DNA of 64,000 nt from Blastocladiella emersonii ATCC 22665. Its lineage: Eukaryota; Fungi; Blastocladiomycota. Made by a program: the position numbers and the translations under genes. This document shows positions 24,129 through 42,460 of this stretch, piece after piece. The notes beneath the pieces were generated by a model. That model did not search any database, had not been told where the DNA came from, and was given only the letters and a program-made list of their open reading frames with translations. Every line of letters starts with the position of its first letter. Positions within the stretch are counted from its first letter, which is position 1. The stretch is taken from NCBI GenBank assembly GCA_025594325.1, contig JANHCV010000015.1, forward strand, positions 248,001 through 312,000. The letters are read 5' to 3'.

Positions 24129-24433
24129 TTTGGGTGGGTGTGGTGGGTGAGGGGGTTGAGGTCTCAAGGGGAGAGCGGAAGAAGGGACCGCGGAGGGACC
24201 GCCGCCCTTTTTATTGCGCCGGATCAACGCGAGACTGCGCAGCAACAGCAGCAGGTGGCCGCCCGCTTGCCGATGCGGGAAGCGCGAACGCGTGGCGCGG
24301 TCGAGACCGCGCGTTCGGCACGCGTGTGGCGCAACGCGACCGCGTGGCCGTGACTCTCGCGGAGTCGTTTCCACCTCACAGTTGTTGTTTAAACTTGACT
24401 CGGAAATTCGGATTTATCGAGCCAACATTCACG

Positions 24434-26488
24434 TCAATAGCCCGTGTTGCTCCCGAGGAACCCCTCGGGGAACACGCAGCGCACGATACTCGCGTCGCCC
24501 TCGCGCACATGGAGAAGGAGCTCGGCGAAGCAAGCAGGAGCGTGGTCCGCGGCCGCTCGAAGCACCGCTTCCGCGAGGGCCAGCTCGCGCTTGGTGTCCT
24601 CGTCTCGCGGGTCAATAAGCTCAAGCACGGTCCGGCACAAGACGCCCATCGGCTCGACGATTCGCTCGACCAAGTGCGCGTCGTCCTTGTCCACGACCTC
24701 GACCGGGCACGACGCGAGGAAGCTGCGCCATGCGGGGACGACGTGGTCGTTGTGAAGCAGCGCGCGGCCCTGGAACTGGTCGCGCCACGCCCAGGTCCGC
24801 AGCGAGCACTCGCTTGACACGGCGACCAGGAACGCAACGTACAGGGTGGACCAGCGAGTGCGACTTGTTTCGTCAGAACCAGCGGAAACCAGTTGCTCGA
24901 GTGAGGGAGAAGAGGCGCCGGCATCGGCAAGAACCGGGACCAGAGTGGTCGCAAGCGCGCCGAGCAGGTCCTCGTCGTACACGTTATCGTCCTCGAGCAA
25001 GAGCTCGAGTAGCCGGTCAGCGATCGCGACGCGGGCCTCGGTGCTGCCAATCCCGAGCGAATCGAGCATGATGCCAAACGTGCGGTCAGCGAACGCGTCC
25101 AGGTGCTCGACCACAAGTTTGACCGTCGCCAAGTACCCGCACCGTTGGATAGCGACTGAGATGAGCTGCGAGAAAGTCTTCGGGGCGTCCGAGTAGCTTC
25201 CCGACACTGCGCGCAGCATGAGGCCGAGCAGCTCCTGCAGGTCGCCGCCCTGTGCGCCCAGAAGCAGGCGATCGAACCCGTCCTCTGAGCAATCCATTTC
25301 CAAGAACCGGGTTACAAAGGTGGCCCAGTACTTGAACTCGGCGAGCCAGGACCACGCTTGCGCGAACGCGAAGATGGGCTCGACGTGGTCCTCGTCGATC
25401 CAACGGAGCATCGTACAACAGATCATGTTGCGCTGGACCTCGTCAGTCAGATCGGCGAGCCGAGCGCGATCGTACTTTTCGAACACGAGGAGTAAGTCGT
25501 CCGATCTAAAGCGGGCCGGGCTGAGGTACATTGAGACGGCCATGCACGGCGTGCGGCCCCAGTCGTCCGTCGCGATACGCGGAGACCAGCCACGGGCCGC
25601 GAGCCAGTCAAGCACGCGACAGCAGTCTTTGAGCTCGCAGTTGTCGATGCGCTCGAGAAAGGCCGAGTAGACGCACGGAGTCTCGAGTAGAGCCATGATC
25701 GCGCCGGGGCGCGGGTGGTGCGCGAAGACAGCTTCGAGTGCATCGAGGTTCATGTGCATGGCGGCCGAGATGGCGACAACCGCGAAAAACTCGACGCGAG
25801 GCACTTCCTCGGTGACCATGGCCTGCTGCTGCAGCGCACACCACAACTCCTCGAGCTCGTACTGGAAATCGGCGGTCCGGTCCGGGATCCACTCGAGCAT
25901 CTTTTGCAGCGGAGCGCACGCTTCGAGGGCAAGCGCGGAAAGGGTGCGAACCAGAGACGCGAGCGCGTGGTTGAGAGATGGCAAGTCACTGGTCGATTCG
26001 AAGTAGAGCGCGAGGGACATGGCATCGATGGCGTGGCCTTCCTTGACACCCTCGGGAGGTCGAGGCACGGCGACCCCGCCGATTGTCGGATCCACGAGCG
26101 CGCGCTGCTGTGCGTCGGAGATGCGTCGGAAGGACCGTAGAAGCGCGTCAAATAGCTGTGTAGTGAGGGCAGGACGTGCGAGTCCACCAAAAGAACCCTG
26201 TAGCGCGATCGAGGCACTCGCGCACCGAGCAACGGCAGACGCGCGCTCGGGGATGCAGTCGGTCAAGAGACGACCTTCGGGTACGGCCTCGCGAAGCAGA
26301 TCCGAAAGAGGACCGCCAGCGCGATTGAACCAGGCGAGGAGGAGCACTGGGTGGTCCACGGCTGCAGCTGAGAGAACTCGCGATGCGCCGACGATCCGAG
26401 ACGCGGGCGCACTGAGTGCAACGATCAGCGCCACTGCGACTTCAGGAAGTGCTGCAAGGTTTATGCTAGGGTTATTCATTTGATGCAT
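24434..26488 (-). CDS. F-box-like family paralogue, 684 aa
   Basis: MHQMNNPSINLAALPEVAVALIVAL plus all family blocks. Confidence 0.85.
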   Translation of the reverse strand: MHQMNNPSINLAALPEVAVALIVALSAPASRIVGASRVLSAAAVDHPVLLLAWFNRAGGPLSDLLREAVPEGRLLTDCIPERASAVARCASASIALQGSFGGLARPALTTQLFDALLRSFRRISDAQQRALVDPTIGGVAVPRPPEGVKEGHAIDAMSLALYFESTSDLPSLNHALASLVRTLSALALEACAPLQKMLEWIPDRTADFQYELEELWCALQQQAMVTEEVPRVEFFAVVAISAAMHMNLDALEAVFAHHPRPGAIMALLETPCVYSAFLERIDNCELKDCCRVLDWLAARGWSPRIATDDWGRTPCMAVSMYLSPARFRSDDLLLVFEKYDRARLADLTDEVQRNMICCTMLRWIDEDHVEPIFAFAQAWSWLAEFKYWATFVTRFLEMDCSEDGFDRLLLGAQGGDLQELLGLMLRAVSGSYSDAPKTFSQLISVAIQRCGYLATVKLVVEHLDAFADRTFGIMLDSLGIGSTEARVAIADRLLELLLEDDNVYDEDLLGALATTLVPVLADAGASSPSLEQLVSAGSDETSRTRWSTLYVAFLVAVSSECSLRTWAWRDQFQGRALLHNDHVVPAWRSFLASCPVEVVDKDDAHLVERIVEPMGVLCRTVLELIDPRDEDTKRELALAEAVLRAAADHAPACFAELLLHVREGDASIVRCVFPEGFLGSNTGY

Positions 26489-26728
26489 CGGATCGCGATC
26501 GCTGTTGCGGGAGACGGGAGAGAGAGCATTTTGTGGCGCGCCGCTGCGCTCTCACCGCCACCGGCCTCGACAGAGTTGACAGCCTCGGCAGCGTGTGGCG
26601 CAACGCGTCTTGCACATCAGCCGAGAGACGAGAGACATAAAGCCTCGACGCCGCACTCGCTCAAAACACTGTTGGTCCAGCTGGAGTGCGTAAAGAAACA
26701 AATATTTTTACTCCAACTGCGGCTTGGA

Positions 26729-27331
26729 TCACCACTCGGGTCCCTCCCACACACCCTCCTTGCAGTCCGCAATCCACATCGCGCGGAGCTCGTCGTCCGC
26801 CACGCACTCGTCCCACCACATGTTGACGTATGTGTCGATCGAGTTTTTGGGGAAGAGGTGCTCGAGATCAAGAAGGGCCGTCAGTTCCATGTCGCAGTGG
26901 TGGATGACAAGCTCTGCAAGTCGAGCTGGAGCGTGCGCTGCCGCGGCGCGAAGCATGTTCGACGCCAAAGCGTGCTTCCACGCGGCTTCGTGGTCTTGAG
27001 TGCTCGGTTTGTGATGCGCGACGATTCTGTGAAGGAAATCCACCGCCTCTTCAGTCCAAAGGAGGAAATCCTCGTCGGTGAAGTCGACGGCCTTGGGCGG
27101 GCACACGGAGAGGAACGCGGTCCACGATTGGACAATTTGGTCCGCGTGATGAGGCAGGAGCATCGCCTGAGCTTGGTCGGTAGGCGGCTCGCACGCCTTC
27201 CACAAGTCGTCGCCAATACAAGTAATGAGGAACCCTGCACAAATGCAGAAATAGTCCAGGAACGGACGTGAGTTTCCATGGCGGCCTGCATGAGAAAGCG
27301 TGGGAGGATACTTTGACGCCGCCAGCCTCAA
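26729..27331 (-). pseudogene. 5'-truncated C-terminal fragment of the family
   Basis: Only the last ~190 aa are present (SWTAFLSVCPP, MLRAAAAHAP, LFPKNSIDTYVNMWWDE). It closely resembles the end of 27382-29514. Confidence 0.75.
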
Positions 27332-27381
27332 TCAACTTGAAGTTTGAGCGGTATATTATACATTCAGACCCAACCGTGTGC

Positions 27382-29514
27382 TCAATCGCCCCCGTTGGTC
27401 CAATCCTCGAAAACCATGCGGCGGAACTCTTCGTCTTCCATTTGCTCATCCCACCAGCGGTTCACGTACGCGTCAAGCGAACGCTCCGGGAAGAGATACT
27501 GCAGGTTGACGAGGGAGAAGAGTCCGTCTTGGCACTGGAGAATCACGAATTCTGCAAAGCGCGAAGGAGAATGGGATGCCGCACCACGGATTATGCCGCG
27601 CGCCAAGGCGCTCTTGCGCTCGCTCGTGTGGGTCTCAGGCCCAATCAAGGAAATTTCCCACGCTGAGCGGTAGACTGCGACCATTTCTTCGCGCGTCCAC
27701 CAGAGCAGGTTTTCGTCGGTGTGGTCGACGGCGTGAGGTGGACACAGTGAAAGAAACGAGGTCCAAGCGGGAACGATTTGGTTGCCAACTGACGCCAACA
27801 AATCGAGGTCGTTGTTGGCTAGTTTCTCGGTTTGGCGGATGCATGTGCTCGCGGTTGTGAGAAATGCAGCATAGATGGTGGAATACTGCGTGTGGCTCGC
27901 TTCGCCCGCGCTAATCAAGCTCGTGAGATGATCACTGGCATTTGGGTTCAGGAACAAAGGGAGCAGGAGTATTGCTAGCGCCTCAAGCAAGTAAGGATAG
28001 CTTGCAGTTGGGTCGTTGCGAAGAATACCAATGAGGCGTTTTGCGAGTACGATCCGGGACTCGAAATCGCCCAAGCCGAGACGATTGAGATCGATAGCAA
28101 ACTCGCTGTCAGCAAATGTCGCGAGCCTGTGGGACACCAGCTCGAGAGCACCCGGCAATCCGCACCGTTCGACCGCGAACGTGATTATCCGCAAGTACAT
28201 TTCCCGCCAATCCGAGTACTTCTCGGACACGTTGTCAAGCAACTCTTTAAGGAGCTGCCCGAGCTCGGCGCCTTCCTTGTCAAGCATGAGTGGGCGCAAA
28301 TCGGTCTCTGAGAGATCTGCTCCGAGGAGATATCTCACATTCTGCGACCAATATTCAATTTCAGCGACCCATGGCCACGCGCGAGAAACCGCAACAGCAG
28401 GTACAACGTGGCCCGCTTCGACCCACAGGCCCAGCTCTCTGCAAAACAGTTGGCGCTGCATCTCGTCAAGTTGTTCGTTGAGGCGAGTGCGATCGTAAGT
28501 GTCAAATATGAATAAAAACGTGTCCAAATCGACTTCCTCTGGAGAGAAGTAGCTTGAGATAGCCAGGTACGGAGGATGTCGATCATTCGCTGTGGGGTTG
28601 CGGGGTTTCCAGCCTTGGCCTTGCAGCCAGTTGAGGAGCCGGCAAGTCGCCTCGAGTGAATTCGCGTCAATGCTTGGCAGGAACGCGCCGTAAACTCGAG
28701 GCATCGCAAGAACGTCAATGATCGAGTTTGGCCGCGGGTGCCGTTGAACAGCAATTTCAAGAGCGTCTTGGTTCCAGTGGATTGCTGCTAAGCTTGCAAG
28801 GAAGGTCAAGAAATCAACCCCAGACGGTGCATCGAGGCCGTTTGCGCTTTGCGAGAGGTTCGAGAGGGCTTCCTGCATCCGAAAAGTGCGGTCCGGCACC
28901 ACACCCGCCAGGGCTCTGATAGTGAAGCGCACTTCGAGCATGAGAACGGGAAGCGAGCTGAGCAGCTCCGTGAGCGCAAAGTCGAGCGCGATTGTATCGC
29001 GTGTTGCCTCAAAGTACAGGGTAAGGCTAATCGCGTCAGTGAAGCGCTTCGTCACCGCCGTGTGAAGACTTGGCAAGGTTCTGGCGCCAAGAAAATGATT
29101 AGCGAGCGCGCGCTGCTGAGTGGCCGTAAGGTGCGAACATGACCGCATGAACGCGCGGAACATAGTGAGATGGAGCGGAGGGCGAACAAATGCGTCAGAT
29201 ACGTTTAGACCTCGAAGCGCATTCGCCGCCATGGCACATAGTGCGGCAGCCGATGGGCTGCTGGGATATTCGTAGAGCGCAATCTCTTTCTCAACGGCTT
29301 CAAGCAACGGACTCGACAAGCTCGCCCCAACGCGTTCAAACCATACAAGCAAAGGGCGCTGATAACCGCGCGCGAGGTCCGCAAAGTTGCGGGACGCGCT
29401 CAGGATCCGCGAGGCGGGCGCGCAGAGGGCAATGACACACTCAAAAAGATCGTCCGGGAGCAAGGCAAGATTCGGGGATAAATTCGCGTTCATGATCAAC
29501 TTCATTCGATTCAT
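27382..29514 (-). CDS. F-box-like family paralogue, 710 aa
   Basis: MNRMKLIMNANLSPNLALLPDDLFECVIAL plus family blocks. The viral element is inserted 136 bp upstream of this ATG. Confidence 0.85.
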   Translation of the reverse strand: MNRMKLIMNANLSPNLALLPDDLFECVIALCAPASRILSASRNFADLARGYQRPLLVWFERVGASLSSPLLEAVEKEIALYEYPSSPSAAALCAMAANALRGLNVSDAFVRPPLHLTMFRAFMRSCSHLTATQQRALANHFLGARTLPSLHTAVTKRFTDAISLTLYFEATRDTIALDFALTELLSSLPVLMLEVRFTIRALAGVVPDRTFRMQEALSNLSQSANGLDAPSGVDFLTFLASLAAIHWNQDALEIAVQRHPRPNSIIDVLAMPRVYGAFLPSIDANSLEATCRLLNWLQGQGWKPRNPTANDRHPPYLAISSYFSPEEVDLDTFLFIFDTYDRTRLNEQLDEMQRQLFCRELGLWVEAGHVVPAVAVSRAWPWVAEIEYWSQNVRYLLGADLSETDLRPLMLDKEGAELGQLLKELLDNVSEKYSDWREMYLRIITFAVERCGLPGALELVSHRLATFADSEFAIDLNRLGLGDFESRIVLAKRLIGILRNDPTASYPYLLEALAILLLPLFLNPNASDHLTSLISAGEASHTQYSTIYAAFLTTASTCIRQTEKLANNDLDLLASVGNQIVPAWTSFLSLCPPHAVDHTDENLLWWTREEMVAVYRSAWEISLIGPETHTSERKSALARGIIRGAASHSPSRFAEFVILQCQDGLFSLVNLQYLFPERSLDAYVNRWWDEQMEDEEFRRMVFEDWTNGGD

Positions 29515-29650
29515 GGAGCCGAGTGGAGCTGCGGGAGAGAGAGCGCGCTTTGGGGCACGCCGCCGATTTTTCACTGGCCGGGCTGGACGCGTTGTCGCCG
29601 TGGTCACCACCTCGCTTCCCTGACCACATAGTGTGCTCTGACCGACCACC

Positions 29651-29678
29651 GTGCCGTATCCCTTAAGGGATACGGCAC
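29651..29678. other. Perfect 28-bp terminal palindrome GTGCCGTATCCCTTAAGGGATACGGCAC
   Basis: Self-complementary, read directly, at the extreme left end. Confidence 0.97.
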
Positions 29679-30128
29679 ACGGCTGCCCTTAGGGACTTCG
29701 CCTCTGGACTCTATCCACCCGGGCTAACCCACGTGATATCTCATTGCTTACCCCGAGTGACTCATAATGAATATAGCGATATCCTCAGGGATTTCGCCAC
29801 CCGGATCGGAGGCCGAAGGCCGAAGCAGGTGGGCGGGAGGGTGGGTGGAAGGGAGGGGCGAGCGGTCCAGGAGTGAGTCCCTGACCTGACCCCTGAGCCC
29901 GTCCCTAACCAACCCCTTGGGCTGACCATTGCTTACCCCGAGCGGTCGGCGGCGGCCGGCGAGCGCAGCGAGACGAAGAGCAGCGCAGCTGCGGCTACCC
30001 ACTGACAGAGTTCCCTGGTCTGGTCCCTGAGCACAGCTGCAAGTCGATCTGTGAGCAGTCCCCGAGCCAGTCCCTGAGCCCGTCCCTGACCACCTGCTGC
30101 AAGCGACTGCTATGAAGCCGTTCACCGT

Positions 30129-30205
30129 AAAAGTTCCACTTTTCGCTCAAAAACAGGTAGGTATATATATACACTGCCCCTTTTTGAGCGAAAAGTGGAA
30201 CTTTT
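30129..30205. promoter_or_regulatory. Stem-loop in the TIR: 25-bp perfect arms and 27-nt loop with TATATATATA (mirror copy at 43283-43359)
   Basis: AAAAGTTCCACTTTTCGCTCAAAAA (30129-30153) pairs with 30181-30205. The function (origin or promoter) is inferred. Confidence 0.6.
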
Positions 30206-30216
30206 CAGAGACAAGA

Positions 30217-30396
30217 GGTCAGGGTACGGGGGTCAGGGCAGGGGAGCGTCTTAGCAGCATCAATGTATTAATCAAAGACAAAGGGTCAGGGTACGGGGGG
30301 TCAGGGCAGGGGAGCGTCTTAGCAGCATCAATGTATTAATCAAAGACAAAGGGTCAGGGTACGGGGGGTCAGGGCAGGGGAGCGTCTTAGCAGGCA
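30217..30396 (+). repeat. 68-bp tandem repeat (~2.6 copies) at the inner edge of the left TIR
   Basis: GGGGAGCGTCTTAGCAG recurs at 30241, 30309 and 30377. Confidence 0.93.
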
Positions 30397-30418
30397 TTGT
30401 GGCAGGTTGTGGACTGTC

Positions 30419-33400
30419 TTAGGGCTCGTTGATGAGCTCGTTGTAGACCTCATCCAGGTCCAGCTCCAGGACAAACGGCGCCGACTTGGCCGGGGCAGTG
30501 GTCCAGGTCTTGTACATGACAAAGTAGTTGATGTCTTCCGTCCACTTCAGGTTAGTGTACTTCTTGCCACGAATTGTGACCTGGCGGTTGTCCTTGTCTG
30601 GCACAGCAAGGCACTTGTTAAAGTAAGTGCTGAGAAGCCTGTTTAGGACTGTTGCTGTGTCACACTTGTAATACCCAAGCTTCTTGAAGTACTTGTGGAT
30701 GTCTGCTTCAAACGTGGCGGGGATGGTGGCCTGGATGTTGAACTCCTCGGACGTGCGGAGGTCCATGCCGTTGTGGTCAAGGAGCTTGTGCAGGACGTGG
30801 GCCTTGTCCTTGGTGTAAAAGTACTGGATACGTTCCATGAAGCGCTCGGCGTTGTCGTCCCAGATGGCCTCCATGTTGTTCTCGCTCAGACCCTTGAACT
30901 TGCGGATGAAGAAGGCCTTGCGGACAGAGAGGCAGATGGTCCAGTCTGGGTCCTCGAGTGTACCCTGGCAGTGGTCGCGCAGGGTCTCCTTGGATGGAAG
31001 CTGGACGTTTGCCCAGTCAAAGGACCAGCCCGATGTCATGACATCCTCAATCTCGGGGTGCGCCTTGTAGTAGTACTCGGGGGAGTCGTCCATGACAATG
31101 TTGGCAACCTTGCAGAAGGCGTCAAAGACCTTGAGGCACGAGGTCACAGCGGCCATCTCGTTCTCGAGATCCGTGTTCTTGACAATGGCCTGGTGAAGTT
31201 TGCCGACCAAGTCCGAGTTAATGACCTGGGACTTGTTCATGTACGCGCCGTGGCAACCATTGCTGATCATGAACACGATCTCGTTGTCAATGGGGTAGCG
31301 CACGCGGTAGATTGCCTGGAAGAAGTCGCGGGCAGGGACCCAGGACTCGTAGCGCGCGTACACCTTGTCAAACTTGTTCTTTGTCGAGAAGTTGACGCCA
31401 ACGGTGATCTTGAGGTTGGCGATGACTATACGGACCGTATCATCGCCCCACACAGAGTCAGGGTCAATGAGTTCCTTGTCCTCGTGGTTGGGGCGGTCGC
31501 CGTGGTAGAGCTTGATCTGCTTGCCAATCTTCCACGTCTCCTTGGCAAAGACCCGCTCAAGGTACTCGCCAAAGGTCTGCACCGACCACTTGGTTGACTT
31601 CTTGCATGGTCGTGGGAGGAAGAGGTAGAGCTTCTTGTTGGCCTTGAGGTCGGCAATGATGTTGCTCTCCATGATGTCTTCGGCGGACTTCTCCTTGTCC
31701 TTGTCGTTGGTGATGAGGCTCATCTTGCGCGGCTCAAACTCCTTGCCAAGCGTGTTCGTGATCACCTTGATCTTACCATGGAGTATGGTCTTGATGTTGT
31801 GCTCAACAGTAAAGGAGCGGAGGACGTCCATGGTCAGGTTTGTGACAAACGCGTCCATGAAGATACCCTTGCTGCCCTTGTGCTCGCACAGCGTCTTGAA
31901 GGCCTTGAGGTTGGCCTCGAGGTTGTTGCAAATGGTGGTTGTGTGCAACTTGGCGTCCTGGAACATCTTGAGGACTGTCTCGGACTCGTCCACCACAACA
32001 ATGTTGTAGGGCTCGGTCAAGTAGTGCAGCGAGCACGGCGAGACAATGAGTCGCTTGTGATCCCCCAGTGTCTTCTTGTCCTTGATGCTGCGGTAGTTGA
32101 CAAAGCCAAGCTTCTGTTCGCGGGCTCGACCCTCGGTGTTGTGGGCCAGGGTGATGCGAGGTGTGATCCAGACCACTCGCGCGTCTGGGTACTTGGCAAT
32201 GTAGTCGCAAACAGCGCCTGTCTTGTTGGAGCCCATGCCCGTGGCCAGCACGTTGAACTTGGCCTCGGTAATGTCGTTGCAGCTCAGGAACTGGTTGGGG
32301 ACGGTCACGTCGGCGGGGACCTGGAGCGACTGCTCAAACTTGATCATGGCCTTGGACTTGAACGCGTCCCAGAACCGCTTGTAGAAGATGGCCTTGATGA
32401 ACTTGTCTGGCACCTGGTAGTCGCAGTTGCTGGCAATCTCGCCCCACCGCTGCTGGTACTTGGCAAAGCGCTGAGCCGAGTTGTCCTGCTGCGACGTCCA
32501 CGCCCAGAACTGTTCAAAGGTGACACCCTTGCGCATGGCCCAGGTCATGATCAGCCAGGTCACGTTGTTGTGGAACGCGTTCTCAGGGCTGACAGGGAGG
32601 TTTTGGAGGATCTCGAGTGGCGTGGCGTCATAGTAGAAGAAGTTGGGGTCGATCTGCACGTCCTTGAACTCGGGGATGTCGAGGTCGTAGTCAAAGCGAC
32701 CCTTGCGGCGCTTGGCCCGCGCTGCCTTGGCCTCGGCAGACACAAACTCGACAAAGGACAGGTCCGAGATCGGCACGCAGTTGGGGTCAAAGTCGTACTG
32801 GATCAGATGCTTGGACAGGCGGTCCTTGTTCCCTGCCTTGAACGTGCCGGGTGTCTTCTTGGGCTTGGACTGGTTGATGCACTTCATGAAGCGGTGCTTG
32901 CTGTACACGCTGGCGTCAAAGCCGAGCTTGACGTGGTCGGGGTGGCTGCAGAACAGCTTCAGGAACGACATGTCCTTGAGCGTGGCCGTGTAGTTGCTGA
33001 GGACAATGTGCCACGACTTTTTGAGGTCCGTCTCGTAGCCGCAGACCTGGAGGTTGGCGCCGGGGAACTGGGCCAGGATGACCTTCTTGATGACGTCCAG
33101 CGTCACGTCCTTGTTGTTGCCCGGGCAGTCAATGTCAAAGTAGACCTTGGACAGGCGCTCGGGGTGGACCATCTCCTGGATGCAGCAGTTCTTGTTGAGG
33201 AGCCCAGCCAGGCCCACCGTCTTGACCTTGGCAAAATAGTGCGCCGCCTTGGGTTCGCCATGGTTGTCGACGCCCTTGTTGATGAGGCGCTTGATGACCG
33301 TCTCGTCGTCTTGCAGCTCGGACAAGAGCTTGCGCTGAGGGCCCATGTCGCTGCCGCCGCCGTCCTTGCCACGGTACCACTGGAGACCAAAGGATTTGCC

Positions 33401-33433
33401 ACCTGCATTGTCGGGGACCGTCTCGCAGACCAT
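30419..33433 (-). CDS. AEP (PrimPol-like) primase + PriCT-like + UL9-like SF2 helicase fusion, 1004 aa
   Basis: AEP motifs YFDID, SWH and FDASVYSKHRFMK. Helicase motifs TGMGSNKT, VVVDESE, KITVGVNF and FFQAIYRVR. Confidence 0.85.
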   Translation of the reverse strand: MVCETVPDNAGGKSFGLQWYRGKDGGGSDMGPQRKLLSELQDDETVIKRLINKGVDNHGEPKAAHYFAKVKTVGLAGLLNKNCCIQEMVHPERLSKVYFDIDCPGNNKDVTLDVIKKVILAQFPGANLQVCGYETDLKKSWHIVLSNYTATLKDMSFLKLFCSHPDHVKLGFDASVYSKHRFMKCINQSKPKKTPGTFKAGNKDRLSKHLIQYDFDPNCVPISDLSFVEFVSAEAKAARAKRRKGRFDYDLDIPEFKDVQIDPNFFYYDATPLEILQNLPVSPENAFHNNVTWLIMTWAMRKGVTFEQFWAWTSQQDNSAQRFAKYQQRWGEIASNCDYQVPDKFIKAIFYKRFWDAFKSKAMIKFEQSLQVPADVTVPNQFLSCNDITEAKFNVLATGMGSNKTGAVCDYIAKYPDARVVWITPRITLAHNTEGRAREQKLGFVNYRSIKDKKTLGDHKRLIVSPCSLHYLTEPYNIVVVDESETVLKMFQDAKLHTTTICNNLEANLKAFKTLCEHKGSKGIFMDAFVTNLTMDVLRSFTVEHNIKTILHGKIKVITNTLGKEFEPRKMSLITNDKDKEKSAEDIMESNIIADLKANKKLYLFLPRPCKKSTKWSVQTFGEYLERVFAKETWKIGKQIKLYHGDRPNHEDKELIDPDSVWGDDTVRIVIANLKITVGVNFSTKNKFDKVYARYESWVPARDFFQAIYRVRYPIDNEIVFMISNGCHGAYMNKSQVINSDLVGKLHQAIVKNTDLENEMAAVTSCLKVFDAFCKVANIVMDDSPEYYYKAHPEIEDVMTSGWSFDWANVQLPSKETLRDHCQGTLEDPDWTICLSVRKAFFIRKFKGLSENNMEAIWDDNAERFMERIQYFYTKDKAHVLHKLLDHNGMDLRTSEEFNIQATIPATFEADIHKYFKKLGYYKCDTATVLNRLLSTYFNKCLAVPDKDNRQVTIRGKKYTNLKWTEDINYFVMYKTWTTAPAKSAPFVLELDLDEVYNELINEP

Positions 33434-33610
33434 GTTGTTATGATGAGGTAACAGAAAAGGTGACAGGGCAGGTGCGTTTAAACGCGCAGGATTTAGCGCT
33501 AATGGCTGTGACCCGGGAGCCCTTGTTGGCATGGCCCATGACTTGCCACTGTCCTGACCCAGGCCCGGCTGCCCTTGTGTGACCTGTCCCTGACCCAGAC
33601 ACGACCTCCC

Positions 33611-33867
33611 CCATGACCCCGACTTGGGAGCCAATCGCGTCTCAGGTCACGATCCTTGAACCGTGACCTGGGCAGCGACTGAGGGCAAAGTCACGGACCC
33701 CCCAGGAGCCCAACTTGGGAGCCAGCAGAGGCCGAGGTCACGATCCTTGAACCGTGACCTGGGCAGCGACTGAGGGCGAAGAACCAGACCTCCACCCCCC
33801 CCCCATGACCCCGACTTGGGAGCCAGCAGGGTCCAAGGTCACGATCCGCTCAAACCGTGACCTGGGC
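33611..33867. repeat. Three direct repeats, each with an inverted motif AGGTCACG-N10/12-CGTGACCT, in the divergent intergenic region
   Basis: Copies at 33644-33669, 33735-33760 and 33836-33863. CATGACCCCGACTTGGGAGCCA is also repeated. Confidence 0.85.
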
Positions 33868-33991
33868 CCTCCCACGGTCCATGACTTGCCACCACCCTGA
33901 CCCTGACCCAGGCCCAGCTACCCAGAAAAAAGAACGTTGCGTTCAAACGCACTTGAGCCCATGGAGCCTTTTTGTTGACAGTCAGTAAACC

Positions 33992-35134
33992 ATGTCGCTC
34001 GAGTCTCTTGCCTCCCAGGTCGCCGTTGCCCTCGCTCAGCATGTTGCCGCAGACGTGGTGCAGCAAGTCATGGACAAGCTCCAGCCCGTGTTTGGGTCAA
34101 TCGACAAGCGCTTCAAGGACTTGGACGCGCGACTCAAGGCCATCGAGTCACACGACCCAGATCACGGCGCTGATCAGCAAGTCACTCCCGTGGAAGTCGA
34201 CACCCCCAAGGTCAAGTTTGCTGAGCTGACTGAGGATGCCATCGAGGCATGTGTCAACGCGCCTGTGGTGGACAAGAACGGGGAGCAGGCCACGCTGAGC
34301 GACACGGACAAGACCAAGACAACTCGCGTGCTCCTTGCATTTGCCAAGTCGGGCATGGATATCCACAACGTTGATGCCGTGTCCAAGGCCGTGGCCACGT
34401 ACCGCGCGACCAAGGGGTCCAAGAACGTCCAGGGACTGCAGGTTGAGACGCTCAAGGCCCTTGCCAAGTACTGTACGTGGAATGGGTGGACCGAGCTTGG
34501 GGCCAAGTACACAGAGGCCAAGAAGCGGGACGCTGACGCCAGCGTGGACGTGCGCAAGGAGCTTGAGTCGGGCGCCCTTCCAAGCCGTGCCGTTCTGCTG
34601 GCTGCTGCGGTTGCTGCCAAAAAGTGGGACAAGCTCGAGTGCACGGGCACCATGCGCTACCTGCGTCTCTACCTCCAAGTCGTGTGCGCGACCCACAGCG
34701 ACCTCGCGTTCCTGACTACAGCCCCAAGCGACAAGTACCCGTCCTACGACCCTGAGACCAAGACGCTGGCCGGGCCAATCTGTGTCAAGACCGAGGGTCG
34801 TGGCTACGAGTTCTCGCATGTCATCGCCGACCCCAACGTGGCAGCCGCCCTGGAGCGGGTCATGGCCAAGCGCAAGGAAGACGGCTACGAGCTGCTGTTC
34901 TTTGACTACACAATCAAGGACCTCGACGACGCCAAGGTGAACACGGCCATTCGCAAGGACTGGTCCAAGACGATTGGCCTTGCTACCAAGAAGCTCAAGT
35001 TTGACGGGTGCGGCGTGCAGCAGATCCGTCGGATTGCTGCGAGCGAGAACGCCGAGGCTTACGCGGCCATTGCCCAGCGCGCCAATGAGATGGGTCACAG
35101 CGTGCCTGTCGCCGTCGCCCACTACATGGTGTAA
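33992..35134 (+). CDS. Divergent tyrosine recombinase-like protein, 380 aa
   Basis: C-terminal QQIRR...ANEMGHSVPVAVAHY gives R...H-x8-Y, and VKTEGRG supplies the Lys. The box I Arg position reads LYLQVVCATHSDL. Confidence 0.75.
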   Translation: MSLESLASQVAVALAQHVAADVVQQVMDKLQPVFGSIDKRFKDLDARLKAIESHDPDHGADQQVTPVEVDTPKVKFAELTEDAIEACVNAPVVDKNGEQATLSDTDKTKTTRVLLAFAKSGMDIHNVDAVSKAVATYRATKGSKNVQGLQVETLKALAKYCTWNGWTELGAKYTEAKKRDADASVDVRKELESGALPSRAVLLAAAVAAKKWDKLECTGTMRYLRLYLQVVCATHSDLAFLTTAPSDKYPSYDPETKTLAGPICVKTEGRGYEFSHVIADPNVAAALERVMAKRKEDGYELLFFDYTIKDLDDAKVNTAIRKDWSKTIGLATKKLKFDGCGVQQIRRIAASENAEAYAAIAQRANEMGHSVPVAVAHYMV

Positions 35135-35154
35135 CTTTTGTCTGTTGTATTGTA

Positions 35155-36267
35155 ATGTACCCACACGAAGAACCTTTGACTGCTGAACAGACCGAGTACC
35201 TGAAAGACTTGTACTACAAACGCGGCCATGTTGGGGTCGGGATCCGCTGTCTCTTTGACATTGTTGACCGCGAGCATACAGGGAAGCACATTTACCGCGC
35301 CCAGCTCGAGCGGTGGCTCAACGACCAGTCCGTGTGGCAGCAGTACAAGCGCGCACCTCAGAAGCGCCAAGACATTCGAAGCATCAACTCAACAAGTCCT
35401 GGCCGCAACTTTCAGCTCGACCTCATTGACATGGGCGAAAACGGTACGTACAAGGGCTTCCGTTACATTCTTACGTGTGTCGACCTGGCGAGCCGCCGCG
35501 TCTACCTCCAACCCATCAAGACCAAGGACAAGACGCGGGAAGCATGGTCCAGCGTGGTCGCCAAGCACAGCCTTGCACCTGCCACGATCCAGACGGACAA
35601 TGGGACCGAGTTCTTTGGCATAGAGGCCGGGACCGAGGCCAAGCACATCAAGGGCAAGGCAGGAGTGCCATACGGTCAAGGTGTTGTTGAGCGTATGAAC
35701 GGGACCATCCGCCGGATGCTCACACCGTGGCTGTCCATTGCCGGCAACAACGACTGGCCCAAGCACCTCAAGACCATTGAATCTGTGATCAACAGCAGCA
35801 AGTCGAGGGCCACAGGCAGGGCGCCCAACGAGTTCCATGACATGCCCCGCGAAACGGCCAAGGAAGAGCTCAAGGCAATCCGAGCTGCCAAGGGCAAGCC
35901 AGAAGGCGACCCTCTGAGCGCGTTGTTGAAGGTAGGGACCCAGGTCCGAGTCCGCGAGCCGTACAAGACTGCCATGGAGGCCAAGGGGAAGCCGGTCTGG
36001 TCGACAACTGTGAGCCAGGTCCAGGTCGTGCGCAAGGGGTTGGGCGTAAGCAATCCGAGCTACAAGGTCCAAGGCCTCAAGGGCTTCTACCCTCGAAGCG
36101 ACGTCCAGCCAGTCACAGCGACCCAGGACCCGCCAACAAGGCAGCGCGTAGGTCCAGGTCTTCCAAGGCTCCCTGTTGCGCGCACCCCAGTCACGCCAAG
36201 GGAGCCCTCGACCCGGGTCAGGCGCGTCCCAGTCCGAGTCCAAGAAAAGTGGGACCGCGGGCTTTAG
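35155..36267 (+). CDS. rve-type DDE integrase (Maverick/PLV c-integrase-like), 370 aa
   Basis: QLDLID, QTDNGTEF and GVVERMNGTIR give an intact D-D-E triad. C-terminal LKVGTQVRV domain. Confidence 0.93.
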   Translation: MYPHEEPLTAEQTEYLKDLYYKRGHVGVGIRCLFDIVDREHTGKHIYRAQLERWLNDQSVWQQYKRAPQKRQDIRSINSTSPGRNFQLDLIDMGENGTYKGFRYILTCVDLASRRVYLQPIKTKDKTREAWSSVVAKHSLAPATIQTDNGTEFFGIEAGTEAKHIKGKAGVPYGQGVVERMNGTIRRMLTPWLSIAGNNDWPKHLKTIESVINSSKSRATGRAPNEFHDMPRETAKEELKAIRAAKGKPEGDPLSALLKVGTQVRVREPYKTAMEAKGKPVWSTTVSQVQVVRKGLGVSNPSYKVQGLKGFYPRSDVQPVTATQDPPTRQRVGPGLPRLPVARTPVTPREPSTRVRRVPVRVQEKWDRGL

Positions 36268-37790
36268 AGCAGGGTCCAGTGGCTTTGAATGATGACCTGG
36301 CAGTCGTTGGCAACTGCGACCAACGGGATCCAGATGAAAGAGTAGCTCTTGGCCGCGTCAAGGTACTCAATGCTCGAGAACTGAAGGAACTGGACGTTGC
36401 CTTCAGCGCGGCACCCGGTGACAAGCGACACTGCAATCATGTCTGTCATATTGTACAGCGCAAAGTTCACAGTGTGGGCTCCAGGGAGCGCGCCGTTTGC
36501 GTAGTAGCCCTTTGCATGGACGAGGTAGTAGCCACTGACAGGGGGTTTGACGCATCCATTGATCACAGACGTGAACGCGCCCGCCGTGGACTGGAACGCA
36601 AAGGTGGCTGGGCCTGTCGATGCTGTGCCGCCAATGATCTTGCCGCCCGTGGTCACTCCGTTTGTAGAGCGGTGCTCGGCCTGAGCGACGTACCGGGTCG
36701 TGCCAGACCGCGAGTCAATGTACGCCTTGTTTGCCGCATCGGTGCCTGCCACTGGAGCGAGGTCAAGAGTGAGCTGCCCTGTGAAGCGACCAGTGCCATT
36801 GACGCGGAGCCTTTCTGTGCCAAGCGTCGCCAAGCCCACGACCACGTTGCTGCCACCTGCCACGAGGGAGACCCCGCCTGTGGTCGCAGACGCAATCTCA
36901 ATGTTACCCGCCGCTGTGCATGCCAGGTTGCTTCGCAGTACGCCTGCCTGCTTAAAGTCGACGTACGTCAATGTATTGGCAGCCGAGTCAAAGACAAGGT
37001 TTGCGCTTGTGGCATTCCGGACCAGGACGTTGGGCACAGTCAGTTGCTTGCCAACTCCAAGACCACCAGCAATGGTGACTGCTCCAGTGCTTGATGTCAA
37101 ACTGTCCGTCGTATTCGCAAAGGCAAAGGCAGCGCCAAGCCCAAGGGTGGACTGGGGGAGCGTGCCAGCGACCGAGGCTGCGCTCACCGCCGTGACCTTG
37201 GCCGAGACGTCGGGGAGTCGTGCCAGGTCAATGGTCCCTGCAAGCTTGGCCGAGTCAATGCCAGATGCCAGCTTGGCGTTGGTCAGGGTCCCGTCTGCAA
37301 TGCGGGCAGGGTCGAGGATCCCAGTGAGCTTGACCGCCGACACGTCCGCAACCTTGGCGTCTGTGACCGCGCCTGTTGCCAGGTGGGCTGTTCCAATGGA
37401 CCCAACGTTGAGCTTGGCCCCATCAATGCCAGTTGCCAGCTTGGCGTTGGTCACGGCCGCGTCTGCCAGGACCAGGGAGCCGACCGTGCCTGCTGCCAGC
37501 TTGGACCCGTCGATGCCAGCTGCCACCTTGGCGTTGGATATGGCACCGTCTGCCAGGGCTCCCGTCCCAATAGTCCCTGCAACGAGCTTGGACCCAGACA
37601 CGGACGCGACCTTGGCATCTGTGACTGCCAGGTCAACGAGAGCCGCCGTGCCGACCGTGCCTGCCACGAGCTTGGACCCGGACACGGACGCGACCTTGGC
37701 ATCAGTCACTGAGCCGTCTGCCAGGACCGAGGTCCCGACTGTGCCTGCCACGAGCTTGGACCCAGACACGGACGCAACCTTGGCATCTGG
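36264..37790 (-). pseudogene. 5'-truncated viral fibre/adhesin-like gene (~500 codons remaining)
   Basis: 27-29-aa repeats DAKVASVSGSKLVAGTVG..LADG.VT, followed by STGAVTIAGGLGVGK, TDAANKAYID and a C1q-like beta head. No in-frame ATG upstream of the repeats in this segment. Confidence 0.7.
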
Positions 37791-39317
37791 ACGCCCGAGA
37801 GCTATGCCAACGACTTTGGCCGCAAACGAGGTGACTCGCTGTTCTACCTCAAGCACCAGGACGGCGTCACTGGGTACGAGGTCAAGGACCTCCAGGAGCA
37901 CGTCCAAGACACGCTTAAAGCGTGGGAAGAGCACCAGGCAACGGGCAAGGTCACTTGAGTCCCAGTCGCTCCACCAGCGGCAAGCCCCAGACCAGAGGCC
38001 CCCGAGTCGGCCACGGACAGCAACAGGGGCAGCAGCGAAGAGGAGCGCGACGAGCTGGCAGAAGAGATCTCGCGAGCCCTGGATGTCATTGACAAGGACG
38101 CTGTACCGGACCACTTGCTCCCCGTGCCCGTCCGGCCAGTCATGCCCGAGCAGTACCCGGTCGAGGCCAGCGACTATGTTGGTCAAGACATTGACAAGTA
38201 CAGCGCCATGATCCCCGGCCAGTACCTGATCCAGAATGACAATGACGGCGGCAACGACCCACCCCCAAGGCTTGACGACGGCACCCGCAACCTCGTGGTC
38301 ATGCCACCAAGCTACGGCCCGGACGTGGCACAGCGGCAAGGCGTGTACAACGAGGGTCACGTCCACCCGGCCATGGACGAGGCACGCACGATCGAGGGCT
38401 CCAAGGACTTGCAGGTCTACAACCCCGAGCGGGCGCTGACAACCACGGACGACATGGAGGTCGACGTTGTCCAGAACTTTCAACAGTTTAACCAGTTCGT
38501 GTACAACAGCTACACGCAGCAGAACACGCAGAACGTCGACATGCGGCAGTTCATCACCCAGTACGAGAACAACTACTACGAGCAGAACGTGGACATGCGG
38601 CAGCAGATCCTGGTCCAGTACAACAATGACCCGAACGTCATGGCCGCGCTTGAGCTCATTGCCTCGCAGTTTGCCGGGTCCCAGGTCATGCAGTACCAGG
38701 CGTACCAGGCGCTCATCGAGCAGTCGGCGGCCGCTCAGGGACTGGCCATGGACGCATTTGCCAACCTCGCGTCCGGGATCGTGGACACGCTCCGAGCCGA
38801 ACGCAACGACTTTGTCCGCCAGATTGACGCTGGCAACCGCGCGCTTGTGTCTGAGATTGCCACGGGCATGTCCTCTGCGCTCAGCAACCAGCAGGTGCTC
38901 ATGAACCAGCTCGCAAGCGGCGTCCAGGGCGCGATCCAAGGGCAGACCCAGAGCAACGAGGCCATGACCAAGACGCTCCAAGACCTTGGGTCCAAGCTGG
39001 ACACGATCCCTGCACCCCAAGTCATTGTCCAGCCTGCCGACACAAGCGGCCTTGAGGCCATGATCAGGGAGCTGGCCGCGCAAAACAATTCTGGCAGTAG
39101 TTCTAAGAAGACCGACATGCTCCTCGAACAGATCCTCAAGCAACTGGGCTACAAGAAGCCGACCGACGCGAAGCTGTTCACAGACAAGCGGGCAGCGGGT
39201 AGCGGGCTGACAGCGCCCAAGATCCAGCGTCACCAGAAGATCCCTGAGCGGCCCGTCAAGCAGGTCCGTGAGACCCCAAGGCGCAGCGGCATTGTGCTTG
39301 ACCTCGGCTGGGACTGA
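37782..39317 (+). pseudogene. 5'-truncated Q/N-rich coiled-coil gene with in-frame TGA at 37956-37958; an ATG at 38142 could give 391 aa
   Basis: A coding-like frame (GIWTPESYANDFGRKRGDSLFYLK...KVT*VPVAPP...EEERDELAEEISRALD) is continuous with ORF 38115-39317. There is no ATG before the TGA. Confidence 0.6.
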
Positions 39318-39343
39318 CGCCCTTTTTTGTTGGCAGTCTTTAA

Positions 39344-40141
39344 ATGTACGACATTGTTGCCATTGACAACGGCTTTACGCGCAACGACGACGGCGAGCCG
39401 CTGCCGATCCCCACGCACCCGTTCACCATGAACGTCATTGGCGCCAAGGGTCAGGGCAAGTCGACGCTGATCGCAAACATGGTCTGCTTCCCGCACTTTT
39501 ACAAGGGCCAGTTCGACAACATCTGGGTCTTTAACCCGACGTTCCACGCCGACGACAAGTACAAGTACATTGCCAGTCAACCGATCCTGCGACCGCCCAA
39601 GAAGGAGCGCAACGTGCTGGACCCCCAGGAGCGCGACCCGGACCGGCTCAAGATCAAGCCAAGCTGCATCGTCACGGACCCCAAGCAGTTCATCCCGACC
39701 CTGCTCAAGATGCGCCAGGACCTGACCAAGACATTCGAAGAGTCTGGCAAGAAGGCGCTCCAGGACCAGCTGCTGATCATCGACGACGTGCTTGGGCTCA
39801 AGCTGCTGAGCCACCAAACGCTGACCAACTTTCTGTGCAACTCGCGGCACTTGAAGATCAGCTGCATCATTGGCGTCCAGCGGTGGTGTGCCCTGCCCAA
39901 GACCCTGCGTATCAACTGCAGCTACAGCGTGGTCTACCCAATCTATGACAAGACCGAGGTCCAGACGCTGCACAAGGAGATTGGGTCGCAGTTCGACCTC
40001 AAGGAGTTTGAGGCCATCATTGAACAGCTCTTTGACACGCGTACTGGCAACACGAAGCGACGCTTCCTGGGCGTCAACAACCAGAACCCGCCCAAGTACC
40101 GGCTCGTAGACAGCTTCAGCGAGTGGATCGTGAAGCAGTAG
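39344..40141 (+). CDS. A32-like (FtsK-HerA) genome-packaging ATPase, 265 aa
   Basis: Walker A GAKGQGKS, Walker B LLIIDD, and SRHLKIS....Q....LPKTLRIN. Confidence 0.93.
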   Translation: MYDIVAIDNGFTRNDDGEPLPIPTHPFTMNVIGAKGQGKSTLIANMVCFPHFYKGQFDNIWVFNPTFHADDKYKYIASQPILRPPKKERNVLDPQERDPDRLKIKPSCIVTDPKQFIPTLLKMRQDLTKTFEESGKKALQDQLLIIDDVLGLKLLSHQTLTNFLCNSRHLKISCIIGVQRWCALPKTLRINCSYSVVYPIYDKTEVQTLHKEIGSQFDLKEFEAIIEQLFDTRTGNTKRRFLGVNNQNPPKYRLVDSFSEWIVKQ

Positions 40142-40181
40142 ACTCTTGACTTTTTTTTGTTGCCGAGTCCTAAACTAAACC

Positions 40182-41402: not shown

Positions 41403-41443
41403 CGGCCCTGTCCTTTCTTTTCTTGCATAGAGTTAAACCCGCC

Positions 41444-41710
41444 ATGATCTTCCGTAACCTCTGGACCAACTTTAGCAATGTGCTCGGCCAGGTCGGGTCC
41501 TTTGTCAACAAACACATGCCGACTGTCCTCAAAGGCGTCAAGACCGTGTCCAAGTTCTTTGAGCGGTCGCACAACCCCGCCGTGAGCTCCATTGCGCAGA
41601 TGGTGACCAAGGGCGCGGACCTTGCCCAAGACATTCACACCTGGTACAACCAACCGACGAGCGAGATCTTTGAGGCAGACGCTGACGACACGGGGACAGC
41701 TGTACAATAA
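41444..41710 (+). CDS. 88-aa protein with N-terminal amphipathic helices
   Basis: ATG in the element's typical T-rich context. Sequence LWTNFSNVLGQVGSFVNKHMPTVLKGVKTVSKFF with an acidic tail. Confidence 0.7.
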   Translation: MIFRNLWTNFSNVLGQVGSFVNKHMPTVLKGVKTVSKFFERSHNPAVSSIAQMVTKGADLAQDIHTWYNQPTSEIFEADADDTGTAVQ

Positions 41711-41728
41711 ATTGTTGTCTTTGTTTAA

Positions 41729-42460
41729 ATGTCCGAGTACAAGACGCTGACCATCTGCAGCCGCGACCTCAAGAACGGCATCCTGTACCTACCACGACCC
41801 CTGTCCGTGCGCGGCGTCAAGGTCAACTCGGCGTACCTCTGCAACAGCTGGCACAAGGCCAACAAAGTGTACCTGACCCAGAGCCGTGGCGCGCTGACGT
41901 TCCCGGGCACCATCACCGTCCCTGATGGCAACTACACGGTCGAGACGTTCACGGCCACGCTCAAGAGCCTGCTCAACAACGCGCCCTCAGCGTACCTCTG
42001 GCAGGGCACATGGGACGTCCAGGTTGACTCGACTACCCAGAAGATGCGCCTGGCCAACGACACGGTTGACTTTACAATTGGAACAGGGACGGCGTCGCTG
42101 AACGTCCACATGGGCTTTGTTGGAGCGTATGGCTACAGCAAGGTCCAGTACGCGTCGGCGCTGGTCAACATCTCGCCCATCAACCTGCTTCACGTCTACT
42201 CGCGCAACCTTGGCACCCGGCTTGCGGACAACATGTACAGCGCGTACCCACAAGACAACGGCGTACTTTGTAGCATCCACGTCATGCAACCCTTTGGCAG
42301 CTGGTTCGAGCATCGACCACACATGGGTGACTACTTTCGCTTTGACGCGCAGGGACAGGCCCAGCAGATTGACTGTATTGACATTGACGTGGTAGATGAG
42401 AACCTGCGCTCTGTCGACTTTCTCGGCCAACCCTTCTACGTCGAGCTCGCGTTCATCTGA
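41729..42460 (+). CDS. Minor capsid (penton-like) protein, 243 aa
   Basis: ITVPDGNY and C-terminal IDIDVVDENLRSVDFLG, typical of Maverick/PLV single jelly-roll pentons. Confidence 0.75.
   Translation: MSEYKTLTICSRDLKNGILYLPRPLSVRGVKVNSAYLCNSWHKANKVYLTQSRGALTFPGTITVPDGNYTVETFTATLKSLLNNAPSAYLWQGTWDVQVDSTTQKMRLANDTVDFTIGTGTASLNVHMGFVGAYGYSKVQYASALVNISPINLLHVYSRNLGTRLADNMYSAYPQDNGVLCSIHVMQPFGSWFEHRPHMGDYFRFDAQGQAQQIDCIDIDVVDENLRSVDFLGQPFYVELAFI

Follow-up and report, generated by a model that had tools for sequence, protein, structure and literature searches.

The closest described relatives of the element reported here are polinton-like viruses (PLVs) that carry an "end module" composed of an inverted repeat, a primase-helicase, and a tyrosine recombinase; the available portion of PMC11296320 floats a role of this module in resolving dimers at telomeres and models its replacement through an intermediate that still holds the old integrase. 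PLVs flanked by target duplications of 5 to 7 bp, as well as PLV genes in Allomyces macrogynus, are reported in the accessible sections of PMC7805220, and those of PMC13236599 describe phaeoviruses with a TelN-like resolvase, an internal palindrome resembling telRL, and sense-antisense Nanopore reads. This phaeovirus work was the only one that our literature search found to link a telomere resolvase with a virophage context, and, among the papers listed, the search found none on hairpin ends of PLVs and none that links protelomerases to polintons, supplementary data, which may hold end sequences, being outside its reach. Here, we analyze a stretch of 64,000 nucleotides from the zoosporic fungus Blastocladiella emersonii ATCC 22665 (GenBank assembly GCA_025594325.1, contig JANHCV010000015.1, positions 248,001 to 312,000; hereafter the window, to whose positions all coordinates refer). 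The window contains an integrated PLV (29652-43836) with two unusual features, namely, the presence of both a DDE integrase and a tyrosine recombinase and the perfectly palindromic nature of its tips. We tentatively read the terminal palindromes as the footprint of hairpin telomeres, with the tyrosine recombinase as the predicted resolvase, a possibility that we favor while rating it short of probable.

Results

Perfect palindromes form the tips of an integrated PLV

The sequence GTGCCGTATCCCTTAAGGGATACGGCAC is a perfect 28-bp palindrome of which the window holds exactly two copies, at 29651-29678 and 43810-43837, and a search allowing up to 3 mismatches revealed no third copy in the window (0.00 expected from 100 shuffles). 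The right copy is longer, its symmetry extending over 32 bp (43808-43839). Seven perfect palindromes with arms of at least 8 nt were detected in the window, the terminal pair being the longest (arms of 14 and 16) and the next one having an arm of 10; the longest arm per block shuffle (n = 50) was 7 to 11. The two palindromes are the outermost bases of a 607-nt terminal inverted repeat, the left copy of which (29651-30257) is 100% complementary to the right one (43231-43837). The half-site of the palindrome has no further occurrence inside the element, and its 22-nt core gave zero exact matches in metagenome_contigs or viral_contigs. Exact and mismatch searches together with shuffles thus confirm what the initial annotation had stated, that the same perfect 28-bp palindrome, extended to 32 bp on the right, lies at both ends.

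Read as TG...CA (29652-43836), the element is bordered on both sides by the 5-bp direct repeat CACCG, which a direct reading of the sequence places at 29647-29651 on the left and at 43837-43841 on the right. On this reading, the palindrome within the element therefore measures 26 bp, and the duplicated flank accounts both for the outer G/C pair and for the 32-bp length of the right copy. The left palindrome then occupies 29652-29677, with its axis at 29664/29665 and the centre CTTAAG (28 bp with the flanking G/C pair), and the right one occupies 43811-43836, with its axis at 43823/43824. Alternative ends, GTG...CAC with a 3-bp ACC duplication, are less likely, two extra coincidences being required. 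TG...CA ends and a 5-bp duplication are hallmarks of retroviral-type integrases, and the element shows the end structure expected of these enzymes (TG...CA, duplication of 4 to 6 bp), with TG at 29652-29653, CA at 43835-43836, and CACCG on both sides. At each end, the outer edge of the palindrome coincides exactly with the TG/CA and with the CACCG duplication. Since the element also encodes a retroviral-type integrase (described below), its insertion was likely made by this enzyme and not by the tyrosine recombinase.

The size of 14.2 kb, the 607-bp perfect repeats, the rve integrase, and the target duplication agree with what is expected of the size and ends of PLVs (14 to 40 kb). The initial annotation had dealt with the palindromes and the recombinase outside this context and needs to be amended: the element is an integrated, multicopy PLV in a eukaryote chromosome, it has a retroviral-type integrase, and its integration needs no recombinase.

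In DNA folding calculations, the 26-mer as a single strand adopts a hairpin with a stem of 11 bp and a loop of 4 nt (-12.1 kcal/mol, z -7.0), a fold equalled by 0 of 200 shuffles.

A divergent tyrosine recombinase is encoded by the element

The gene at 33992-35134 (plus strand) encodes a protein of 380 amino acids with an N-terminal coiled coil, a core-binding domain (residues ~78 to 195), and a catalytic domain (residues ~200 to 380). Judged by its modeled fold and by the conserved Arg/Arg/His/Tyr columns of its alignment, the product is a divergent tyrosine recombinase. Word-based searches returned seven homologues for the whole protein and six for the region 205-380, all of them from Blastocladiella emersonii and 56 to 91% identical. 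The protein and its seven paralogues matched no Pfam family, and Phage_integrase (PF00589) gave no match even at E ≤ 10. The alignment of the family (A1) matched nothing relevant in NCBIfam or PHROGs at E ≤ 10 and no related loci in viral_contigs, and PDB sequence searches with P0001, A1, A4, and P0002 returned nothing relevant.

A first AlphaFold model was poor (pLDDT 46.5) with the exception of residues 78-195, which were confident, and its comparison with BFVD by Foldseek was uninformative. The best match of residues 78-195 was the core-binding domain of XerA (4a8e_A; Z 9.8, rmsd 2.3 over 90 residues), and the same list contained lambda Int, XerD, Cre, and IntI, all of which matched through their N-terminal core-binding domains at the expected location along the chain. 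We then deepened the alignment with proteins from IMG/VR, at first those encoded beside relatives of the element's helicase (26 loci) and then those of a further scan (80 loci), which gave 53 non-redundant proteins and a joint alignment of 62 sequences. The genes beside these helicase relatives have about 300 codons and encode C-termini of the form ..SMLRHI..MGHS......Y.K. The deeper alignment lifted the model to a pLDDT of 63, a middling quality. The top rows of the VIA comparison of this second model (residues 80-380) were XerA (9.2), a type IB topoisomerase (9.1), XerH (9.0, catalytic domain, residues 185-380), XerA again (8.9), and Cre (8.4), and tyrosine recombinases filled the top 11 rows of the Foldseek search, none of them at E ≤ 0.001.

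The key residues of the recombinase are H235 (Arg in relatives), K266 (assigned by eye only), R346, H369, and Y378. The spacings R346-H369 (23 residues) and H369-Y378 (9 residues) match the corresponding values of lambda Int, Cre, and XerD. In the 62-sequence alignment, Tyr378 is conserved in 62 sequences, R346 in 61, the Arg of box I in 58, and H369 in 36. Four of the 62 sequences, all from aquatic PLV relatives, match Pfam Phage_integrase at E ≤ 0.01, the best at 5e-6. When the fungal family was compared by hhalign with six aquatic PLV proteins, the probability was 23.8% (P 8.4e-4) and the motifs IRRI/MLRHI and EMGHSV/MGHS were aligned. The structure-model matches and the alignment support the designation of the 33992-35134 product as a tyrosine recombinase in the initial annotation.

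The codon CAC at 34694-34696 (plus strand) places a histidine at the first catalytic Arg column, which holds Arg in 58 of the 62 aligned sequences and His only here; all six paralogues that cover column 235 have Arg. Because His235 replaces the first catalytic Arg, this copy of the recombinase is probably catalytically impaired and dependent on other copies. By adjacent locus tags, the recombinase gene lies beside that of the primase-helicase in at least three of the seven paralogous loci.

Some recombinase genes of aquatic PLVs lie near perfect palindromes

In seven PLV contigs of IMG/VR, the stop codon of the recombinase gene is followed by a perfect palindrome, the shortest measuring 38 bp and the longest at least 58 bp, the axis of which lies ~100 to 140 nt past that codon. 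Four variants can be distinguished, with the common core GAAA[TC]CCGCGG[GA]TTTC and with outer arms that differ from one variant to another, each being perfectly symmetric. Variant V1 (38 bp, L093) is at a contig end; V2 (42 bp, L089 and L132) and V3 (50 bp, L126 and L138) are internal; V4 (at least 58 bp) is found at the start of L137 and in L082, which is a perfect 2 x 2607-nt fold-back about the palindrome. In L089, the symmetry runs on imperfectly for ~150 nt on either side of the palindrome. Inverted ends were present in 1 of 41 whole contigs, namely, the complete fold-back L082. We found no description of these recombinase-adjacent palindromes of aquatic PLV contigs in the literature searched. 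Twenty of the 26 viral_contigs matches to the 16-nt core pattern were set aside, having arms of 3 to 11 and no recombinase nearby. As a separate observation, a TET-associated glycosyltransferase (TAGT) gene adjoins the recombinase or helicase module in two contigs (L089, 98-1072, E 1.2e-16; L025, 2-598, E 5e-12), which hints at DNA base modification.

Other genes and repeats of the element

Likely genes were picked by their third-position GC content (GC3). A 1071-codon frame on the minus strand (30419-33634, GC3 0.83) encodes a primase joined to a superfamily 2 (SF2) helicase of the UL9/Herpes_ori_bp type, the start codon being uncertain (ATG at codon 35, 68, or 97). The primase part contains the AEP-like motifs VYFDIDC and SWHIV, and the helicase part contains GMGSNKTG and VVVDESE. 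In Atlas, the protein scored 0.99 to Preplasmiviricota clusters with Herpes_ori_bp (70%) and PriCT_2 (52%). The window's copy has no Pfam match, and 5 of its 12 homologues carry a precomputed PF02399 assignment. Seven of these homologues are from Blastocladiella emersonii (up to 98% identity) and four from Allomyces species (45 to 50%). Three (P0021, P0022, and P0025; Allomyces arbusculus, A. javanicus, Logan assembly) sit on contigs of 14.6 to 15.0 kb, about the size of the element, and these contigs may be whole elements assembled alone or free forms. Pfam, PHROG, motif, and Atlas comparisons found no protein-primed polymerase among the genes of the element, in line with the initial annotation, which had noted the lack of a terminal-protein-primed polymerase; the replication protein is the primase with its SF2 helicase. 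The helicase and recombinase genes are divergently oriented, and the region that separates them contains three direct repeats of ~91 to 101 bp (33605-33847), each with a small GGTCACG..CGTGACC inverted repeat; the fold of this region is not significant (z -1.5).

The retroviral-type (rve, DDE) integrase, of 370 amino acids, is encoded on the plus strand at 35155-36267. It matches Pfam rve with an E value of 2.9e-6 and 27.9 bits, below the cut-off of 32.6, and also PHROG transposase families. In a PDB sequence search, all 36 matches at E ≤ 0.01 were retroviral integrase cores, the best being the PFV integrase (1.3e-4). Candidate D-D-E motifs, read by eye, are LDLIDM, QTDNGTEF, and VVERMNG, and the protein has the features of an RNase H-fold core.

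Next to it on the minus strand, 36264-38100 (upstream limit approximate) encodes a fibre-like protein with 28-amino-acid repeats, which matches PHROG tail-fibre families (5e-10 and 1.3e-9) and Pfam Phage_Tail_Tip (2.6e-8). The first in-frame ATG of this gene comes only close to the 3' end, which may reflect an upstream exon, a non-ATG start, or damage in this copy. The plus strand then carries a gene for a Q/N-rich protein without a family match (38142-39317, GC3 0.83) and one for a genome-packaging ATPase of the A32/FtsK type (39344-40141; Pfam Pox_A32, E 4.8e-12, 46.3 bits against a cut-off of 22.8), a gene expected of a PLV. A candidate major capsid protein (40182-41402, plus strand, GC3 0.83) is proposed from position and size only and a candidate minor capsid (penton) protein (41729-42460, plus strand, GC3 0.80) from position only; neither has a Pfam or PHROG match, and no relatives of the candidate major capsid protein were found in viral_contigs. 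No cysteine protease was detected in the element.

Within the terminal inverted repeat, a subterminal long hairpin (30129-30205, mirrored at 43283-43359) has 32-nt arms that are 91% complementary around an AT-rich 13-nt spacer and a DNA fold of -30.9 kcal/mol (z -11.7 for 30129-30205); it is a candidate origin or promoter element. Three direct repeats of 30 to 33 nt, GGGGGTCAGGGCAGGGGAGCGTCTTAGCAG, spaced by 68 nt, are found just inward of the left repeat (30228-30396), and tandem repeats of the GGCACCCCCGACC type are found just inward of the right one (43075-43215). The subterminal regions are therefore asymmetric.

Genomic setting and copies in public data

The flanks encode eukaryotic proteins, among them PBDC1 (E 8.2e-20) and leucine-rich repeats. 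When the element is removed in silico, an 803-codon frame on the minus strand runs open across the junction, and the insertion therefore lies in or just upstream of a long open reading frame (ORF) of unknown family. The sequence around the element (24400-29650 and 43840-48600) has a lower GC content than that further out (55 to 60% versus ~70%) and contains long minus-strand ORFs (684, 755, 574, and 558 codons), none of which has a Pfam match; this surround may be another mobile or viral insertion into which the PLV landed. Further downstream, a 1203-codon ORF on the minus strand (53890-57501) shows a weak match to RVT_1 (E 9.5e-4, below the cut-off) and may be a retroelement remnant.

Public data on the element consist of short-read contigs from four runs of one sample, and contigs of this kind cannot show absence. 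The summed contig depth over the element is several-fold to ~50-fold that of the flanks, a ratio that should not be read as a copy number. Contigs of the left flank break off at 29680/29681 and those of the right flank begin at 43809/43811, in both cases about one assembler word into the repeat, as expected at the edges of a repeated element. Some contigs join the terminal palindrome, through 31 to 34 other letters, to 29928 or to its mirror position 43560, from which it follows that other copies have a different subterminal sequence and the same tip. In these copies, ~250 nt of the subterminal repeat are swapped for the 31 to 34 other letters while the palindromic tip is kept. Most of the differences between copies across 29000-44500 are transitions (in run X1, 297 of 373 places). 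No RNA dataset is listed as carrying the element.

Discussion

Hairpin telomeres as a tentative explanation of the palindromic tips

Two considerations suit a resolvase role of the recombinase. Integration is explained by the integrase, and the recombinase is therefore free for another task. Moreover, the palindrome is symmetric through its centre and hence suits hairpin formation, whereas an ordinary recombination site would lose its direction. We propose, as a possibility to be held with reserve, that the terminal palindromes are the footprint of hairpin telomeres and that the tyrosine recombinase is their predicted resolvase. In this scheme, the free genome would be linear and double-stranded, with both ends sealed by a hairpin and each tip lying at the CTTAAG centre. 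Its replication would depend on the primase-helicase and on a polymerase supplied by the host or by a helper virus, and copying through a hairpin would give rise to the perfect palindrome. The recombinase would then cut a few bases on either side of the axis and reseal the strands into two hairpins, as TelN does on telRL, so that the continuous strand of the hairpin-ended genome would read ...GTG-TGCCGTATCCCTT-AAGGGATACGGCA-CACGG.... Insertion would begin with integrase cleavage behind the CA that is located 13 nt beyond the hairpin tip, which would generate a 26-nt fold-back 3' end with a CA-OH. The joining of this end to the target with a 5-bp stagger, followed by gap repair, would produce a 26-bp palindrome abutting the duplication, which is the arrangement observed. 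Cutting both terminal palindromes at their centres would free the hairpin-ended genome again. Besides accounting for the exact coincidence of the palindrome's outer edge with the CA of the integrase, this reading draws indirect support from the aquatic PLVs, in which palindromes lie close to distantly related recombinase genes.

The scheme may be extended to PLVs with a primase-helicase and a tyrosine recombinase at large, which would then be hairpin-telomere viruses. Their recombinase would constitute a new resolvase lineage of eukaryote viruses without detectable relation to TelN, ResT, or TelA, and two resolutions would free the genome, which the integrase would return to a chromosome through a cut made 13 nt away from the hairpin tip. 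We consider this wider proposal doubtful.

A number of observations weigh against hairpin telomeres, among them the distance between the recombinase and the known protelomerases. By hhalign, the fungal recombinase profile matched eight phage protelomerases, TelN and TelK included, with a probability of 0.24%, and the aquatic PLV recombinases matched phage protelomerases with one of 0.37%; no Pfam or NCBIfam match was obtained for the recombinase, the resolvase family PF16684 included. The protelomerase TelA (4f41_A) does occupy the first Foldseek rank (E 0.045, probability 0.82), but this lead is marginal and within the noise of lambda Int and Cre, and TelA is not among the 50 VIA rows listed. 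An Atlas neighbour bearing a ResT-TelK_cat domain (score 0.92) is a lead only. By sequence or profile membership, then, the recombinase does not class as a protelomerase. Of the protelomerase-like enzyme put forward in the initial annotation, the tyrosine-recombinase fold stands, and the likeness to protelomerases finds no echo in the comparison with the eight phage enzymes. The first catalytic Arg is His235 here, a residue that would likely cripple catalysis in this copy. In addition, the recombinase gene does not adjoin the palindromes, the nearest of which is 4.3 kb away.

The comparison with aquatic PLVs has its own weaknesses. The hhalign link between the fungal and aquatic recombinases reported above is weak, and the A1 profile matched no ORF of the 26 PLV loci at E ≤ 10. 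The palindrome is internal in 4 of the 7 aquatic contigs, with flanks that are different and stable across independent contigs; such internal palindromes could equally be conventional recombination sites or the origin of a circular genome. Any palindrome that exceeds the assembler's word can, through assembly alone, give rise to a fold-back or to a contig end. No enrichment within 600 nt of recombinase genes was seen for perfect palindromes with arms of 10 or more, most of which are AT-only (13 in 157 kb, versus 53 in 776 kb elsewhere). Terminal hairpins show no general enrichment at PLV contig ends (5 of 145, versus 4 of 145 and 2 of 145 in internal controls), and a long terminal palindrome was found at 1 of 145 such ends. 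As for the element itself, the short-read contigs list no fold-back, head-to-head, circle, or empty-site (29651-43842) joint, and release through two resolutions would leave a hairpin-capped break in the chromosome.

Alternative explanations

The alternative that survives best, although we judge it unlikely, is that the enzyme is an ordinary conservative site-specific recombinase and that the palindromes are its sites, used for excision as a circle in which the repeat arms flank a single palindrome, for inversion, or for dimer resolution of the Xer/dif kind, without any hairpins. The fold and motifs are of the integrase/Xer/Cre type, Xer proteins head the VIA lists, and, as opposed to the four Phage_integrase matches among the 62 aligned relatives, none match the resolvase family. 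The palindromes of L089 and L132, internal between imperfect inverted arms of ~150 nt, are placed as they would be in an excised circle, and circular-mapping PLV genomes are listed in the accessible part of PMC7805220. On the other hand, a site symmetric about its centre is directionless, so that inversion and excision would compete, and a perfect symmetry over 26 to 58 bp, kept despite the divergence of the arms, exceeds what a recombinase site usually needs. The coincidence of the palindrome edge with the CA of the integrase is also left unexplained, and neither a circle junction nor a solo palindrome was seen in the window search or among the short-read contigs, the latter being unable to show absence.

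Another explanation, which we regard as rather improbable even with its two forms taken together, is that the palindrome serves the integrase or end replication alone, the recombinase being irrelevant, a leftover, or an alternative integrase. In one form, each tip would be made up of two 13-bp binding sites for the integrase, joined in inverted orientation, as in a retroviral two-long terminal repeat (two-LTR) junction or in abutted insertion sequence (IS) ends; in the other, an open 3' end folds back and primes its own extension, in a manner of the Cavalier-Smith/Bateman type and like that of parvoviruses. The start of the palindrome with TG and its end with CA amount to two mirror-image cut sites of the integrase type, the 26-mer alone folds stably, and His replaces the catalytic Arg in this recombinase copy; furthermore, two enzyme sets would temporarily coexist in the end-module replacement modeled in the available text of PMC11296320. 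An idle recombinase is, however, difficult to reconcile with its retention beside the primase-helicase in at least three of seven paralogous loci and with the catalytic Arg kept in all six other paralogues covering the column, which argues for selection on the recombinase family. Aquatic PLVs also tie palindromes to recombinase genes, a comparison made on recombinase genes and not on integrase genes, and self-priming requires a nickase to finish the ends, of which no other is evident.

Lastly, the view that the palindromes are functionless products of chance or of assembly has nothing specific in its favor beyond the fact that inverted duplications can be assembler-made, and we give it practically no credence in light of the arms of 14 and 16 compared to at most 11 in 50 shuffles, of the independent contigs from four runs of one sample that stop within 1 to 2 nt of the same boundaries (29680/29681 and 43809/43811), of the same tip retained by copies with different subterminal sequences, and of the embedding of both ends in unique flanks with a target duplication.

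Significance

To our knowledge, how PLVs and virophages devoid of a protein-primed polymerase copy their ends, and how they exit the chromosome when a helper virus arrives, are open questions. The element offers a concrete and testable answer, since a resolution site, a candidate enzyme, and an integrase are united in one 14-kb unit, the host fungi are culturable, and there are many natural copies to compare. Should the recombinase prove to be a resolvase, the known range of hairpin telomeres, now phages, Borrelia, Agrobacterium, and phaeoviruses, would come to include the large group of the PLVs, and a DDE integrase and a tyrosine recombinase would be seen to divide their tasks at shared DNA ends. 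Otherwise, the element would remain a clear case of a PLV with both enzyme types, the intermediate predicted in the accessible part of PMC11296320.

Comparison with known systems

Inverted terminal repeats with self-complementary ends, serving the replication of linear ends, liken the element to the hairpins of poxviruses and chloroviruses and to the palindromes of parvoviruses. Poxviruses use a RuvC-like resolvase at concatemer junctions and parvoviruses an HUH nickase; neither enzyme is evident in the element. With Mavirus/EMALE virophages and Polintons/Mavericks, it shares a retroviral-type integrase, long inverted repeats, a short duplication, and a multicopy state in a protist-grade host; it differs from them in having no protein-primed polymerase and no detected cysteine protease and in adding a tyrosine recombinase and palindromic tips.

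The TelN/telRL system of N15, together with phiKO2, PY54, VP882, and the phaeovirus resolvase, resembles the element in combining an enzyme of the tyrosine-recombinase fold with a perfect palindrome of similar size that has a 6-bp palindrome at its centre. In the aquatic PLV relatives, the palindrome adjoins the recombinase gene, a placement reminiscent of telRL next to telN in N15 and phiKO2. In contrast, the recombinase of the element has no detectable sequence or profile relation to the TelN type and is shorter (380 versus 520 to 680 amino acids), and the palindrome, known here from sequence alone, occurs in two copies, one at either end of an integrated element, instead of once internally.

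The element stands closest to the end-module PLVs of PMC11296320 and to the PLVs of Allomyces, oomycetes, and Spizellomyces (PMC7805220), as far as these are described in the available portions of both papers. It has in common with them the size (14 kb), the inverted repeats, an A32-type ATPase, and the integrated multicopy state; as in the end-module PLVs, a primase-helicase stands beside a tyrosine recombinase next to one repeat, and the 5-bp duplication is within the reported 5 to 7 bp. Its repeats differ in that they end in a perfect palindrome abutting the duplication, an arrangement of which no description was found in the literature searched, these partial sources included. It also differs by its UL9-like SF2 helicase and by its possession of both a retroviral-type integrase and a tyrosine recombinase; with these two enzymes side by side, the element therefore fits the intermediate of end-module replacement as it is outlined in the accessible part of PMC11296320.

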